Source of the DNA: Prochlorococcus marinus subsp. pastoris str. CCMP1986
Lineage (GTDB): Bacteria > Cyanobacteriota > Cyanobacteriia > PCC-6307 > Cyanobiaceae
Reading direction: 5' to 3'
Assembly (NCBI RefSeq): GCF_000011465.1
Contig: NC_005072.1
Span: 1,170,001-1,202,000, forward strand
Length of the DNA: 32,000 bases
Each line of letters starts with the position of its first letter. Position 1 is the first letter of the stretch. Positions 9,001 to 21,000 of this stretch are shown here, in pieces. Position numbers: made by a program.

Positions 9001-12000
9001 TCCCAAATTAAGAAAAGAAATATCAATATTATTTAAATCAATTCCTAAATTCCAAGCAAAACAAGCCAAAATAAAGCTCAAGAAAAGTCTTTTAAATGGA
9101 GAGAGAGAAAGAACATCATCATAAATGCCTATTAAAAAGAAACATAATGATAAACCAACCAAAACAAAAAGGACTCGATATTCAATAATAAAAAAGCTTG
9201 AAATATACTGAAAAAATATAAACCCAAGTAAACTTAAAAAAAACCCAAGAAATATAGCTAGTCCTCCAATCCTCACAAGTTTTATTTTTTTTACCTTTCT
9301 TGAATTAAGAGAATCAAAAATACCGTATTTACTTCCTATCTTTTTAGAAAAAGGAACAAGTATGAAAGTTAAAAGAAATGCAATTATGAATATTATTAAT
9401 AAGCAAGTAATTTCAATTAACATTTTAATTTTAAAAAATTTAAGTTTAAATTTTATTCAATATTGAGAATAATACAGATTGATCTAAAGATAATAAACTT
9501 TTTAGTAATTTAAAAGAAAATGTATAAATTAATTTTAAAATAAATATATATTAAATTTAAAAAACTCTATTCTTGAAAAAGAATTCATTAGTTTGGTATA
9601 TATAAAATTGAAAATTGATACAAATAAGAATTAAATTTATTTTTTTATATTTACAATACTGATCTATTAATATACCATTATTTGAAATTTAAAAAATATC
9701 TTTTCTAAATGCTCTAAAGGAAAGTACTAAATCATCGCATCGTCTTAAATTTAGATTTTCAATTGATTATTAAAAATGATTTTATTTAAAAATTACTAAC
9801 TATTTAATCTTTATTTATCCTTAAAAATATTTTTACAGATTACTTAAAATAATTTATTCTATTCTTAATCAGATTTAATTTATGGTAATTCCAAAGTTTG
9901 GTTTTCTTGAGAGACCTGATATTGATTTATTGAAGTCTTTTAAAATAAAAAAATATTTATCTGGATGGAAATATTATTTAGGTCGATATAAATATCCAAA
10001 TTTTACAGGTAATTTGATAAATTATGTTATTGGACCAATATTAAAAAATAAATTTGTTTTTTTAAGGTGTGATTGTGATCATTTTGGACCGTGGACATAC
10101 TTATTTCTGTTTACAAAATCTCAACTATTTAAAAAAGATAAAATTTATTTTTGTTTAGCTAGAAAAAATACTATTAATAGGCATTGGATTAATTTATACA
10201 GAAAAAAAAATCTTATTTTAATTTTTAATCCTATATTACATTTTATTTTATCACCCTTATTTTTTGCTCCTATTATTGCATTAGATGTTAACGCTCATAA
10301 CTATATTTCATTTTTTAGAAATAATATCAAATATAAGCATTTCAGAAGAATGAATGAATTGAGTGACGATTTTTTAGCATCAATAAACAATGATAAGTCA
10401 TTACCTAAAAGAAATGAATCAATATTTAATAATAAAATTGTATTACTCTATGCGAGAACAGGAAATTGGAGATTTTCAATAAAAAATTCAACTAGAAATA
10501 TGTCCCTAGAGGCATCGAACGAATTAATTAGAATTATTAGCAAAAGTTATAACGTTTTTTTAGTAGGTGATACACAATTCTCAAATAAATCTAAAAATAA
10601 AAATATTTTTGATGAATCATATCTTTTAAAAAATAATATATCAATATCAGAAATATATAAAAGGGCTTCATTTGTTATTGGGAGTTGTTCAGGGGGTACT
10701 CATTTCCCTTCACTTATTTTTAATATTCCCACTTTATATATAGCTGATATACCTTTATGGCACTTGAAAGCTATTTACAACCTCCCAGCATCTAATTATA
10801 AAAATTTATCAATTCCTAAGAAAGATAAGTGGTTACTTATCTCGAAAGAAAAATTTAATTCACTAACTTCTAATCAATATGAAGATATTTTACAAATATT
10901 TTTCAAGGGGGGGGATATTTCATCTATTAAAGAATTCAATACTTACAGATGTGATAGATCCTTTAATAAAGAGGAACCAGCATTTACTAAGGATAAGAAA
11001 GGAAATATACATATTTCAGAATTCAGTTATAACACTTTGGGTATTTAAGAAAATATTTACAAATAGAATTATTTTTTTTTATTGATAAAAATTGATGATT
11101 ATTGTGCTATAATTCATGAGTTTTAAATGCTTATTTGATAAGCTAATATGCCAATACAAAGTATCAAAAATGATAAGATTCTTGAGAAAATAAATTCTTT
11201 AAAAATTTTAAATAATTTTGAGAATCAAAATTTAGATCATTTTAATCAATTCAAAATAGCATTACATATTAGGGCGATAGAAGAGGCAATTGTATCACTT
11301 GCAAAAGACAATAAACTTAGAGGTCCAATTCATTCTTATGTTGGAGAAGAAGCAATCGCTACAGGTGTTCTCTCTCACGCAAAGCCAATTGATGCAGTTA
11401 CTAGTACACATAGAGGACATGGGCATTACATTGCTAAAGGAGGAAATATTTCTATGCTAATAGATGAATTACATGGGAAGGAGTCTGGTTGTAATGGAGG
11501 TAAAGGTGGTTCTATGCATGTCGCAGATTTATCGATAAATCATTTTGGAGCGAATGGAATCGTGGGTGGAGGAGTACCAATAGCCTGCGGGATCGCACTT
11601 GCAAATAAATTAGATAAAAAGGATTCTATAGTCTTCTGTTTTTTCGGAGATGGGGCTTCTAATCAAGGCGTAGTATTAGAAAGTTTTAACTTAGCCGGAT
11701 TTTTATCTCTTCCTATAGTTTTTATATGTGAAAATAATCAATTTGCACAATCTACAAAACTCTCTGATATTTCTTTAACCTCGGTTGCAAAAAAATCACA
11801 AGGATTTGGCATTAAAAGTATAGAGGTGGATGGCCTAAATATTTCGGAAGTATATAGTAAAACCTCTGATGCCGTTAATTACACAAGAAATGAAATAAAG
11901 CCATATCTAATTCAAGCAAATACTTATAGATTTCATAGACATTTTGTTTCAGAGAAACCTAAACCTATAGATTACTTGGATGAAAATTTTCATAAAGAAT

Positions 12001-18000: not shown

Positions 18001-21000
18001 GGGATATTGGTAATCGAATGTTTGATAAATATAAAAGTGTATCTCCTGAGAGATTCTTTAATTGCGGGATTGCTGAAGCTAATATGATGAGCCTCGCTTC
18101 TGGAATGGCACTTTGCGGATTAAAGCCTGTAATTTATACAATCACGCCATTCACTACCACTAGATGTTTAGAACAAATTAGAATTGGTGTCGCGTATCAT
18201 AATGCACCGGTAGTAATAGTAGGCACAGGCTCAGGACTATCGTATTCTGAGTTGGGTCCAACTCACCATTCATTAGAGGATATAGCTATTCTCAGAGCAG
18301 TTCCAAATATAAATATTTTAACTCCATCGGATAAGCAGGAATTAACTACACAACTTCAAGAAGCCATTTCAATGAATACTCCTTCCTATATGAGAATAGG
18401 AAAAAAAGGAGAACCAGATTTATTCAACGAATCCCATAATCTAGGAATAGGTAAAGCAAATATATTAAAAGAAGGAGAAGAAATTTTAATTATTGGCATT
18501 GGACCTATTCTTATAGAAGCTATTGAGGCAGCAAAATCCTTGAAAAATGATGGTTTAAATATTGGTGTAGCATCCATGGGAAGTATAAGACCATTAGACG
18601 ATGATTTTTTAAGAAAAATGATTTCAAAGAAATATAAATATTGGATTACTTTAGAAGAACATGGAATAGTTGGTGGTTTAGGAAGTACATTAATTGAATG
18701 GTGTTCCGATAAACAATTGTATGATATTAAAATTAAAAGATTAGGGGTAAAAAATGAATTTATCCATAAACTGGGTAATCAATCTTACACAAGAAATATT
18801 TTAGGAATAGATAAAAAAGGAATTATTAATACAATAAAAGAACTATGAAAAAATTAGGCTTAGATTTTGATAATACATTAATTGATTATGACGAAGTATT
18901 TTATAAGCTTGCTTTAGAAAAAAACTTAATACCTCAATCTATTAATAAAGATAAAAAATCTGTAAGAAAGTTTTTCATTGATAATAATATCGAAGATGAA
19001 TTCATCAAACTTCAAGGTGAAGTATATGGATTAAAAGTACTTGAGGCCAAGCAATCATTTGGAATGTTTGAAGCATTAAAATCACTAAAAAATGATAATT
19101 TTGAATTGATAATAGTAAGTCATAAAACTAAATATCCTTATTCTGGCAAAAAATATGATCTTCACAAAGCAGCAAGTAATTGGTTAGAAGTGAATAAATT
19201 CTATGATGAAGATGGCTTAGCTATGAAAAGAGAAAATGTATATTTTGAAGTAACAAAAGAAGATAAAATTTCTCGTATTGAAGAGTTAGATATTTCTTTC
19301 TATATTGATGATTTGCAATCCATCTTAGAAATGATAAGACCATCGATTAAAAGAATACTTTATAACCCTAAATTCAAAGAAAAAATTGATAAAGATTTTT
19401 ACTTATTAGAGAATTGGAAAGATTTAAAATACTTAATTGAAGAAATCAGTTAAATGAAAAAACCTTTAATTGATATTAAGTCTTTACTAAAATCAAAGGG
19501 AATATCAATTGAGGATTATTCTGAAATAGGATTTGGCAAAAATAGTAGATCTTTTAGAGTATTTACTAAAAAGCAAATATATTTTTTTAAAATTTATTCT
19601 TCTGATCATAAAGATAAACGAGATAGATTATTAACCGAATTAAATTTCCTAAATTTTTTAAAAGAAAGTAAATTTAATAATACCCCCTTACCAATAGTTT
19701 GGGATTTTAAAGAAAGATGGATATTGTTAAGTTGGATAAATGGAGAAAGATTATCAAATCCATCTAATGATGAATGTCAAACTTTAGTAGATTTTCTTAT
19801 AAATATACAAAGTAATAGAGAATCAGAATTTGCAAAAAAGATTGGGAATGCATCGGAGGCTCAATTTTCAATTAATGATCATATTAATCATGTTCATGAA
19901 AGGTTTAAAAAGGTGGATAATTATTTTTCAATTAATAAAGAAAATAACATCCCGAAAGAAAGTTCGTTTTATGAATTAGAAATTCTTTTTAATAAATTAT
20001 TTCGTAAGTTTGGTGAAAATATTGATAAATCATTTCCTTTTTTTGATTCAAAAAAAGATATATATAAAATCCTTTCCCCATCTGATGTGGGTTTTCATAA
20101 TATATTAATTGATAGAAAAAAATTGTATTTTATTGATTTTGAATATGCCGGATGGGATGATCCATGTAAATTAATTTGTGATTTGGTTTTACAACCTGAC
20201 TATCCAATTCCAAGTAAATATATAGGTACAATAAATAAATTAATATCAAATAAACATTTTCCTAAGGATTCCCTTAATAATTTAGATTTAATGCTAAATA
20301 TTTATCAATCAAAATGGGTTCTAATTATTCTTAATACTATTATTTTTAATAAAGATACTATTACAGAAAATGTCTTCAAAAAATTATCAAGAAAAATCTC
20401 AAAGTACATAGCTAATAGCGAAGCCAAAATTTTCATTACAAAGAAAGCACTTTTTTATTAATAAAATCATTCATTTTAAATATAAATACTACTTTATTGA
20501 TTTCCTAAAAAAAATCAATAAATTTCCATTTTTTAATTAAAGGTTTATTAAAGATAAGAATTAATCTAAAATTTAATTAAATTGATAACAAAGTCATTTT
20601 TTTTTTAATAGTTTCAAATTTTCTTTCAAAATATAATGAGATTAACTGAAGATGGTTTAAATAAAAATCAATCAAATTCATTAAGTTTACTTTCTTCCTT
20701 ATATAAATATCTTAGCTTTAAGAGAAAATTACAAATCTGGATAAATTTACTACTTGCATTATTGAATGCAGCTTTTGAAATATTTTCTATAGGGATTATT
20801 TTCCCATTATTAAATATAGTAATTAATCCTAAAGAAATTGAAACAAATAAATATCTCTCTACAATTTATAATTTTTTTAATTCTTATGGAGAAAATTATT
20901 TTTTATATTTTATTATCATTTCCACACTCTTAATAGTTTCAATATCATTAATAGTCAAATTAACAAACTTAAGATATACAATTAAACTTGCCCAAAATAT

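Follow-up and report, generated by a model that had tools for sequence, protein, structure and literature searches.

Two groups of described pathways come closest to the subject of this paper, a block of ten plus-strand genes at positions 11148-20461 of a 32,000-nucleotide (nt) stretch of the genome of Prochlorococcus marinus MED4 (strain CCMP1986, contig NC_005072.1; this whole stretch is hereafter called the window). The first is the GDP-heptose toolkit of Campylobacter jejuni, which comprises GmhA/HddA/GmhB/HddC, Cj1427, a 4,6-dehydratase, cupin epimerases and C4-reductases (PMC10680097). The second consists of thiamine diphosphate (ThDP) enzymes that put acyl branches on activated sugars. 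Namely, the E1 alpha/beta-like pairs AviB1/AviB2 of avilamycin and Pau11/Pau12 of paulomycin are proposed to add a pyruvate-derived C-4 acetyl branch to an NDP-4-keto sugar (PMC4753412), and YerE/YerF (yersiniose) and ErwE/MyGE are the ThDP acyl-branching enzymes of Gram-negative and mycobacterial lipopolysaccharides (PMC9306805). In other words, nucleotide-heptose tailoring is already known, and ThDP-dependent acetyl branching is either known or proposed. To our knowledge, no nucleotide-sugar pathway with a transketolase-type step has been described, and no glycan locus of Gram-negative bacteria with a branching enzyme of the E1 type. Judged by analogy, the MED4 locus would bring together heptose tailoring of the C. 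jejuni type, a branching set of the AviB1/AviB2 type and a new transketolase-type step, and we regard the block, with a confidence that falls somewhat short of even, as a nucleotide-heptose tailoring operon made of two modules and containing two ThDP enzymes.

The ten open reading frames (ORFs) correspond to PMM1229-PMM1238, and their proteins are identical to CAE19688-CAE19697; the window also matches NCBI contig JNAG01000004.1 (GCA_000759875.1). Genes 1-5 constitute what we call Module B and genes 6-10 what we call Module A, as follows.

11148-12122, plus strand: E1 alpha-like ThDP subunit, PMM1229, Module B (PF00676 at 4e-59)
12125-13054, plus strand: E1 beta-like subunit, PMM1230, Module B (PF02779, Transket_pyr, at 2.5e-14)
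13051-13959, plus strand: WbuC-type cupin with a second beta-barrel domain, Module B (TIGR04366 at 73.1 bits against a cutoff of 42, residues 20-141)
13956-15212, plus strand: Zn-ribbon sugar C-methyltransferase, Module B (Methyltransf_13, class I methyltransferase domain Methyltransf_23, and Methyltransf_14)
15213-16052, plus strand: RmlD-like short-chain dehydrogenase/reductase (SDR), Module B (PF04321, RmlD_sub_bind, at 1.5e-25)
16053-16068, plus strand: module boundary, the only junction longer than 3 nt; contains AAGGGA
16069-17100, plus strand: Zn-dependent alcohol dehydrogenase (Zn-ADH), Module A (ADH_N and ADH_zinc_N)
17097-17927, plus strand: transketolase-like N subunit (TK-N), ThDP/metal-binding, PMM1235, Module A (PF00456 at 2e-42)
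17931-18848, plus strand: transketolase-like C subunit (TK-C), Pyr and C domains, PMM1236, Module A (Transket_pyr and Transketolase_C; 6yaj at 5.6e-50)
18845-19453, plus strand: HAD-superfamily phosphatase-like protein of 202 amino acids (aa), Module A (motifs I-IV by alignment)
19454-20461, plus strand: APH/choline-kinase-fold kinase, Module A (APH)

The initial annotation of the window had described ten plus-strand genes at these coordinates, with no gap over 16 nt and with four ATGA start/stop overlaps, and had assigned a domain to each. All of this was found as described: the nine junctions measure, in order, 2, -4, -4, 0, 16, -4, 3, -4 and 0 nt, every 4-nt overlap is an ATGA (at 13051, 13956, 17097 and 18845), and the domain assignments were upheld by Pfam and NCBIfam, in the case of the HAD protein through motifs in its orthologues and in that of the kinase through APH matches. 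The gaps that flank the block are larger (99 nt on the 5' side and 174 nt on the 3' side).

These ten genes are two modules and not one evolutionary unit: elsewhere, the modules swap order, take opposite strands and differ in distribution. Seven orthologous E1beta loci were compared; two further relatives of E1beta, of intermediate distance (P0240 and P0242), lie on uninformatively short contigs. In all seven, the string E1alpha-E1beta-cupin-C-methyltransferase is rigid, and in six of them a transketolase-like pair lies within 10 kb of the E1beta gene, at E1beta identities of 38-62%; in the seventh, P0032, the 11 kb visible contain no transketolase gene. In a Prochlorococcus single-cell genome (L002), the order is swapped, such that the methyltransferase, Zn-ADH, TK-N, TK-C, HAD and kinase genes precede those of E1alpha, E1beta, cupin, C-methyltransferase and RmlD-like reductase, while in another locus (L169) the two modules lie on opposite strands and converge.

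The difference in distribution is large. A word-indexed search gave 46 relatives of E1beta. When 1.84 billion cluster representatives were searched exhaustively with HMMER, 11 came out at E<=1e-30 and 323 at E<=1e-10. Among 185,579 species genomes, a scan yielded 555 E1beta relatives with a single orthologue, in SAR116, the rest being ordinary E1beta proteins and the genome of origin not being among the matches. Relatives of TK-C, on the other hand, number more than 7,800 at E<=1e-60, including some in Pelagibacter, and none of 80 TK-C-anchored metagenome loci, on contigs of 25-65% GC, carries an orthologous E1beta. What is more, at the module boundary in MED4 the gene GC content steps from 0.233 to 0.334, and the genes at 16069-18848 are the GC-richest of the operon (0.32-0.34) in a window of about 25% GC.

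What accompanies the transketolase-like pair was counted over 39 loci, from metagenomes and genomes, with a length of 6 kb or more. TK-N is present in 38 of these and TK-C in 37, followed by an SDR or dehydratase (29), Zn-ADH (28), HAD (27), kinase (24), a 223-aa methyltransferase (24), an HldE-like protein (20), GmhA (13) and an NTP-transferase (9); one or two Zn-ribbon C-methyltransferases occur in 13, and a small cupin and an RmlD-like reductase in several. These genes typically form one same-strand string, in which the TK pair is usually flanked directly by a dehydratase or a C4-dehydrogenase. In two loci (L106 and L116), for example, the cassette runs in the order HldE-like protein, NTP-transferase, Cj1427-like SDR, GmhA, RmlB-like dehydratase, TK-N, TK-C, Zn-ADH, HAD, APH-kinase and the 223-aa methyltransferase. 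The last of these adjoins the TK block in its 24 loci, and its MED4 counterpart lies just beyond the ten genes:

22421-23092, plus strand: 223-aa class I S-adenosylmethionine-dependent methyltransferase, which accompanies Module A (45-67% identical)

Because the same set recurs across the TK-C-anchored loci, genes 6-10 together with the gene at 22421-23092 belong to a widespread heptose-linked cassette, to which the E1 pair is a rare marine add-on. The ten genes are not the whole pathway: this methyltransferase, as well as the heptose activation and oxidation genes described below, lie outside the block.

The same data can be read as two independent pathways lying side by side, each module tailoring a different sugar of the repeat unit, and the close packing stemming from the assembly of the island. 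We hold this to be possible rather than probable. It would account for the unequal distribution (E1beta being rare, and absent as an orthologue from all 80 TK-C loci), for the swapped order in L002 and the opposite strands in L169, for the coincidence of the GC step with the largest junction at the module boundary, and for the Zn-ribbon C-methyltransferases, small cupins and RmlD-like genes that accompany Module A where there is no E1. It sits less well with the presence of E1beta beside the TK pair in six of seven loci in spite of the 38-62% identity between them, and with the fact that both modules need a keto-sugar intermediate while the locus shows one heptose entry set only.

Several observations on the compared loci are worth recording in their own right. 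In L169, the gene immediately before TK-N encodes a radical SAM/SPASM protein (9650-10753, minus strand), a Zn-ADH is not to be seen, and the kinase is followed by a 487-aa protein that matches no family. Pairs of DegT-type aminotransferases, which the window lacks, lie beside Module B in L002 (15223-17487) and in the P0032 locus, so that the sugar may occur in aminated versions too. The Module A proteins of L089, a metagenome contig of 64% GC, are 61-65% identical to those encoded at 16069-18848 and 22421-23092 of the window, from a Prochlorococcus of 26% GC, which is as close as MED4 is to the Prochlorococcus cell L002; this points to horizontal transfer or to very strong constraint. Finally, a string of TK-N, TK-C, E1alpha and E1beta in a metagenome-assembled genome of the Acidobacteriaceae (L008, 7069-10978) was rejected as a parallel, since its neighbours are of a non-glycan kind (cytochrome c, metallo-beta-lactamase, SDR, aminotransferase, M20 peptidase and RraA-like aldolase). 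Its TK-C pocket is also non-canonical, with D, Y and L at human positions 318, 345 and 416, and it represents a different pairing of the two ThDP families.

Turning to the enzymes themselves, the E1 pair of Module B lies outside the metabolic E1 family both by curated score and by partner genes. E1alpha reaches 250.6 bits with the NCBIfam model TIGR03182, under its cutoff of 393.85, and E1beta 86.2 bits with the curated model of the pyruvate dehydrogenase E1 beta subunit, against a cutoff of 321; E1beta is only 21-28% identical to ordinary E1 beta proteins. No gene for an E2 (lipoyl acyltransferase) or E3 partner was found in the approximately 52 kb made up of the window and 10 kb on each side. 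The ThDP motif of E1alpha (GDG-X26-NN, at residue 167) is kept in five orthologues, and the activator glutamate of E1beta (E55, within DMPISES; DxPISES in the family) and its GHHSD motif are invariant in 18 family members.

The closest likeness in gene context is with AviB1/AviB2 and Pau11/Pau12, where adjacent E1 alpha/beta genes also lie in a sugar-nucleotide cluster that lacks E2 and E3 and contains a C-methyltransferase, ketoreductases and an enzyme forming a 4-keto group. Those, however, are antibiotic clusters of actinomycetes acting on a 6-deoxyhexose, whereas here a surface polysaccharide of cyanobacterial and marine bacteria and a probable heptose are concerned. The likeness is drawn from gene context and not from sequence, and the reaction of AviB1/AviB2 is itself only proposed (PMC4753412). 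YerE/YerF and ErwE/MyGE are comparable in a different respect, since they belong to loci of the O-antigen type and direct a ThDP-bound acyl anion onto a nucleotide sugar at its C-4 ketone, with reduction to follow, as would be the case here under our proposal. They are single-chain (flavo)enzymes resembling acetohydroxyacid synthase, in contrast to the two-subunit E1-type enzyme of MED4 and the second, transketolase-type ThDP enzyme beside it. Erwiniose and caryophyllose were considered as precedents for chain extension and set aside, as they are explained by long acyl branches put on by YerE-like enzymes (PMC9306805).

Among the remaining products of Module B, the cupin protein has a well conserved N-terminal WbuC-type domain and a poorly conserved C-terminal half. 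Profile-profile comparison showed no similarity between the two halves, and an AlphaFold (AF2) model has a low mean pLDDT of 57.7, the C-terminal domain reaching 70-90. The top Foldseek neighbours of this low-confidence model across its full length are all bicupins, and so the protein is probably a bicupin, in line with the "(bi)cupin" of the initial annotation. In the C-methyltransferase, all three domains score above their gathering thresholds, an architecture of the TylC3/EvaC type, and paralogues of the same architecture accompany Module A in other loci. The RmlD-like SDR scores 83 bits with TIGR01214, under the cutoff of 224.

The transketolase-like pair of Module A has the two-subunit architecture of the split transketolase of Carboxydothermus hydrogenoformans. 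The best match of TK-N in the PDB is to the latter (6yak, 1.6e-69); human H37, H77, H110 and H258 have their aligned counterparts in its H33, H73, H106 and the histidine of NWH, and the SDG...N metal site is kept. TK-C, in turn, keeps R318 (human numbering) and the activator glutamate E366 (its own E49). Like the Carboxydothermus enzyme (6yak/6yaj) and the human-type short transketolases, the pair thus has the ThDP/metal motif, the four catalytic histidines and the activator glutamate. It had been proposed that the block encodes two different ThDP heterodimers, and on alignment the cofactor-binding and catalytic residues are indeed kept in both, such that both enzymes appear to be catalytically competent.

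The substrate pocket is a different matter. In canonical transketolases, the histidine equivalent to yeast H469 (human H416) helps bind the substrate phosphate, while the aspartate equivalent to yeast D477 (human D424) forms a hydrogen bond with the C2 hydroxyl of the acceptor and sets stereoselectivity. In human numbering, TK-C carries the five substitutions S345R, F389I, H416G, D424L and R474K. Among the 37 related loci whose TK-C ORF is full-length, 35 have G416, L424 and K474; position 345 is mostly arginine or lysine, and F389I is conserved in the TK-C subfamily. Against the NCBIfam transketolase model, the subunits score 273.7 and 194.8 bits compared with a cutoff of 488 for the full-length model, of which each spans half. 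The five pocket substitutions, together with a context of nucleotide-sugar tailoring in place of the pentose-phosphate pathway, set the pair apart from the Carboxydothermus and human enzymes. Since the substrate-binding residues are replaced (H416G, D424L), the pair is, as far as alignment can tell, a distinct transketolase subfamily with a different substrate and not an ordinary transketolase. As to the earlier label "split transketolase", the subunits and the cofactor and catalytic residues bear it out, and the substrate-binding residues are the exception. Translated-sequence (tblastn) matches to TK-C on plasmids were discarded, being generic rhizobial split transketolases only, at no more than 39% identity.

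Could both enzymes simply belong to ordinary metabolism, the split transketolase to the pentose-phosphate pathway and the E1 pair to a dehydrogenase for pyruvate or acetoin, with their place in the island being incidental? The source annotations for the block do read "Dehydrogenase E1 component" and "transketolase", a published table gives PMM1229 as "Dehydrogenase, E1 component", and one relative of E1beta is labelled acetoin:DCPIP oxidoreductase beta. Given that the scores fall far under the equivalog cutoffs, that E2 and E3 genes are not found nearby, that key substrate residues of the transketolase are replaced, and that, even in distant taxa, the genes keep strictly to glycan loci, we give this explanation almost no credence.

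The nature of the sugar is suggested by genes on the same contig just outside the window. It had been stated that the window contains no nucleotidyltransferase and no 4,6-dehydratase, which is correct, and that the entry substrate could not be named, which no longer holds once the flanking DNA is included. Namely, a string of six genes lies approximately 1.5-7 kb before window position 1 (L005, 3250-9016), encoding a GmhB-like HAD-IIIA phosphatase, an L-2-hydroxyglutarate-oxidase-like flavoprotein, an HddC/MurU-like NTP-transferase, a GmhA-like isomerase, a domain-swapped HldE (adenylyltransferase domain first, heptose-7-phosphate-kinase domain second) and a 315-aa SDR. An RmlB-like 4,6-dehydratase (132 bits) follows about 9 kb past the window end. 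The best solved relative of the 315-aa SDR is 6vo6/6vo8, at 1.5e-39, with the next match at 9e-22, and a Cj1427-like SDR and an RmlB-like dehydratase are present in all orthologous loci. Because genes of the GmhA, HldE, GmhB-like and HddC-like types, together with a C4-dehydrogenase and a dehydratase, flank the window, the substrate is probably a nucleotide-heptose.

In this respect, the locus shares with the C. jejuni toolkit a GmhA, a kinase, a phosphatase, an NTP-transferase, a C4-dehydrogenase-like SDR, a dehydratase, a cupin and an RmlD-like reductase, and the C4-dehydrogenase and dehydratase occur together in C. jejuni HS:3 and HS:4 as well (PMC10680097). ThDP enzymes, a Zn-ribbon C-methyltransferase, a Zn-ADH and an APH-fold kinase are all missing from the C. 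jejuni clusters. Furthermore, the MED4 locus uses the domain-swapped type of HldE, its cupin is of the WbuC type where the C. jejuni epimerase is of the RmlC type, and its RmlD-like reductase scores under cutoff. One further point concerns the flavoprotein, which scores 320.7 bits against a cutoff of 299 and was not seen in other loci. To restore its bound NAD, the GDP-heptose C4-dehydrogenase Cj1427 reduces alpha-ketoglutarate, which yields L-2-hydroxyglutarate (PMC10680097). The L-2-hydroxyglutarate oxidase, encoded four genes 5' of the 315-aa SDR, would recycle this by-product of the ping-pong enzyme if the SDR is Cj1427-like.

Taking the preferred reading of a nucleotide-heptose tailoring operon as given, the following route can be proposed. 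Sedoheptulose-7-phosphate would be converted to NDP-D-glycero-D-manno-heptose by the GmhA, HldE-like, GmhB-like and HddC-like enzymes, a step for which the gene content is at hand and the pathway is our reading of it, and the NDP-heptose would then become a 4-keto or 6-deoxy-4-keto sugar through the Cj1427-like C4-dehydrogenase and/or the RmlB-like 4,6-dehydratase. In Module B, E1alpha/beta would decarboxylate a 2-oxoacid, most simply pyruvate, and direct the ThDP-bound acyl anion onto the keto carbon of the sugar, so that an acetyl branch of two carbons arises, as is proposed for AviB1/AviB2 and Pau11/Pau12. The cupin might epimerise or isomerise beside the ketone, the Zn-ribbon enzyme would C-methylate an adjacent carbon, and the RmlD-like SDR would reduce the remaining ketone or that of the branch. 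The steps of Module A are the most speculative. Here, the Zn-ADH may interconvert a primary alcohol and an aldehyde on the sugar, for example at C7 of a 6-deoxyheptose, where the alpha-carbon has no hydroxyl, and the transketolase-like pair could add a two-carbon glycolaldehyde (ketol) unit to that carbonyl; about as plausible is that it adds a glycolyl branch to the 4-ketone instead. Our preference for the former draws on the primary-alcohol type of the Zn-ADH, on the loss from the TK pocket of the aspartate (D424) that senses the acceptor hydroxyl, and on the dehydratase or C4-dehydrogenase that usually flanks the pair. The HAD protein and the APH-fold kinase would handle a phosphate on the sugar or on the new side chain, the 223-aa methyltransferase would methylate the product, and the finished sugar would pass into a polysaccharide built by the flanking glycosyltransferases and export genes. 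Of the "branched" and "extended" carbon skeleton that the initial annotation had suggested, the branching has, by analogy, a precedent in AviB1/AviB2, while extension is one of several possible readings of the transketolase-like step.

We think it less likely than not that a nucleotide sugar is the substrate of the transketolase-like enzyme. We would be just as cautious about the wider proposal that the pair is a new nucleotide-sugar enzyme making a carbon-carbon bond on an activated heptose, giving a nine-carbon sugar or a glycolyl branch, that the widespread eleven-gene cassette makes unrecognised higher-carbon surface sugars, and that Prochlorococcus, SAR116 and their relatives add to these an E1-type acetyl branch and a C-methyl group. 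If the pair does act on nucleotide sugars, one sugar would be modified by two different ThDP enzymes.

A number of points weigh against the nucleotide-heptose reading as a whole. Neither ThDP enzyme has direct evidence of nucleotide-sugar use, and the TK pocket keeps three or four basic residues (R318, R/K345, R471, K474), so that a simple sugar phosphate could be its ligand just as well. Necessity does not explain the roles of the HAD protein and the kinase, and they are absent from some loci (L003, L004, L103 and L131); MED4 has a separate GmhB-like gene besides the HAD. The opposite strands in L169 and the P0032 locus with no visible transketolase may mean that the modules serve separate sugars. 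The matches to GmhA, HldE, E1 and transketolase all lie under the NCBIfam curated cutoffs. Lastly, the label "Cj1427-like" depends on 6vo6/6vo8 being C. jejuni Cj1427.

The under-cutoff scores and the basic pocket bear in particular on an explanation in which the transketolase-like enzyme works before activation. It would build an unusual ketose phosphate, for instance of higher-carbon or deoxy type, from a non-standard aldehyde supplied as acceptor by the Zn-ADH, after which the GmhA-like, HldE-like and HAD proteins would make the NDP-sugar. The logic parallels the ADP-heptose pathway and the lincosamide octose pathway, the latter with its transaldolase, isomerase, kinase, phosphatase and nucleotidyltransferase. 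In the cassette, a full set of isomerase, kinase, phosphatase and nucleotidyltransferase adjoins the TK pair, the GmhA-like and HldE-like proteins fall under the heptose equivalog cutoffs, basic residues are kept at the phosphate site, and canonical GmhB is rare in the loci where the 200-aa HAD is common (27 of 39). Nevertheless, we find this unlikely: the pocket lacks the phosphate-binding histidine, the likeness of the Zn-ADH is to ADHs of small alcohols and a phosphorylated substrate is not obvious for it, the GmhB-like gene of MED4 makes the HAD unneeded for heptose activation, and the TK pair usually lies directly beside a dehydratase or C4-dehydrogenase.

With regard to the Zn-ADH, its nearest solved relatives are classical primary-alcohol/aldehyde ADHs and not polyol-phosphate dehydrogenases, and its identity among Module A loci is 40-69%. 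The 202-aa HAD-like protein itself matches no Pfam or NCBIfam family, and Pfam HAD models are matched by six of its 19 orthologues, which is weak support; that said, its motif residues D7, D9 and T11 (DFDNT), S92, K141 and D155-D156 are invariant in all 19. For the kinase, all 17 orthologues match APH and six of them Choline_kinase, the catalytic-loop residues D211/N216 and the DFE metal motif being invariant. Its profile matches in the PDB are a choline kinase and a corramycin phosphotransferase, and sequence and profile searches of the PDB with the kinase and the HAD gave nothing decisive. Activation routes of the AmgK/MupP/MurU and LicA/LicC types combine a HAD phosphatase, an APH-fold kinase and a nucleotidyltransferase of the NTP_transferase family, and the same three-enzyme combination is found in this one locus; the MED4 kinase differs from AmgK and LicA in having no significant match to their family models.

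The choline-kinase/APH character of the kinase invites yet another explanation, namely that the product of the Zn-ADH, TK pair, HAD and kinase is the phosphate of a small ketose or polyol, which is activated by the kinase and an NTP-transferase or by the HldE-like kinase/cytidylyltransferase and attached as a phospho-substituent, while the heptose genes serve another residue of the polymer. Such a scheme would be akin to the LicA/LicC and CDP-alditol pathways. In keeping with this, the kinase relatives just mentioned are of the fitting type (the six Choline_kinase matches, the choline kinase and the corramycin phosphotransferase), the cassette has two kinases and two nucleotidyltransferases, and the N domain of the HldE-like protein also resembles glycerol-3-phosphate cytidylyltransferase. 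We consider it quite improbable, considering that the Zn-ADH is not of the TarJ or polyol-phosphate type, that loci with no HAD or kinase still keep the TK pair and the Zn-ADH, and that the adjacency of the TK pair is tightest with nucleotide-sugar oxidoreductases.

The open-access full-text literature contains no paper, as far as we found, that assigns a product to the ten genes or to the cassette, and for the locus tags PMM1228-PMM1239 it yielded one expression table, listing PMM1229, only. MED4 is a model organism, and the locus is among its variable cell-surface polysaccharide genes. Variable surface polysaccharide islands of this kind shape phage susceptibility and grazing. Assigning the reaction of the transketolase-like pair would annotate a large set of genes now mislabelled "transketolase" and "dehydrogenase E1", and could bring to light both a hitherto unseen family of surface sugars in bacteria and a biocatalyst, also new, that forms carbon-carbon bonds on sugars.

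As for transcription, it is plausible that the ten genes are co-transcribed as a single transcript, because they are tightly packed; the promoter and hairpin motifs around them carry no statistical weight. The following two elements are meant.

11105-11113, plus strand: TGCTATAAT extended -10-like element, 35 nt 5' of the first ATG, its position alone being suggestive
20493-20522, plus strand: AU-rich hairpin with T-run, weak terminator candidate (11-bp stem, -7.5 kcal/mol)

Both had been put forward as signs of one transcription unit, and both are present, but neither is better than chance. The TGCTATAAT-type motif occurs four times in the window, where 5.4 occurrences are expected by chance, and the hairpin has a z of -1.27, with 26 of 200 shuffles folding equally well. 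General promoter and terminator scans of the window gave nothing above chance level. The same holds for two TGATATAAT elements, one at 15158-15166 (plus strand), within the C-methyltransferase gene and 47 nt 5' of the RmlD-like start, which could be an internal promoter, and one at 28744-28752 (minus strand), 22 nt 5' of a carbamoyltransferase start. Searches of the whole window for tRNAs and Rfam families gave no match, and two stretches, 3760-4287 (528 nt) and 29986-30909 (924 nt), contain no ORF of at least 100 aa, the source annotation having two 38-aa genes in the first.

The block lies in a polysaccharide locus, as had been claimed. The island encodes GT1 and GT2 glycosyltransferases, a Wza-like exporter, a Wzc-like tyrosine kinase, an EpsG polymerase-like protein, a GT4 initiating transferase and several methyltransferases, as well as carbamoyltransferases and the exporter that is the next gene downstream of the operon:

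20636-22420, plus strand: PglK/MsbA/HepA-like ABC exporter

A gene 31% identical to this exporter is present in L004. On the other side of the operon, 99 nt 5' of it, a 388-aa protein is encoded at 9882-11048 (plus strand), which has no Pfam match and a weak match to the glycosyltransferase model TIGR04372, and it may be the transferase for the unusual sugar. Finally, a triplet of carbamoyltransferase, SxtJ-like and DUF5989 genes occurs twice, approximately 6 kb apart, at 26504-28722 of the window (minus strand) and at 6770-9183 of L006, and the duplicated carbamoyltransferase sets suggest that the glycan is O-carbamoylated.

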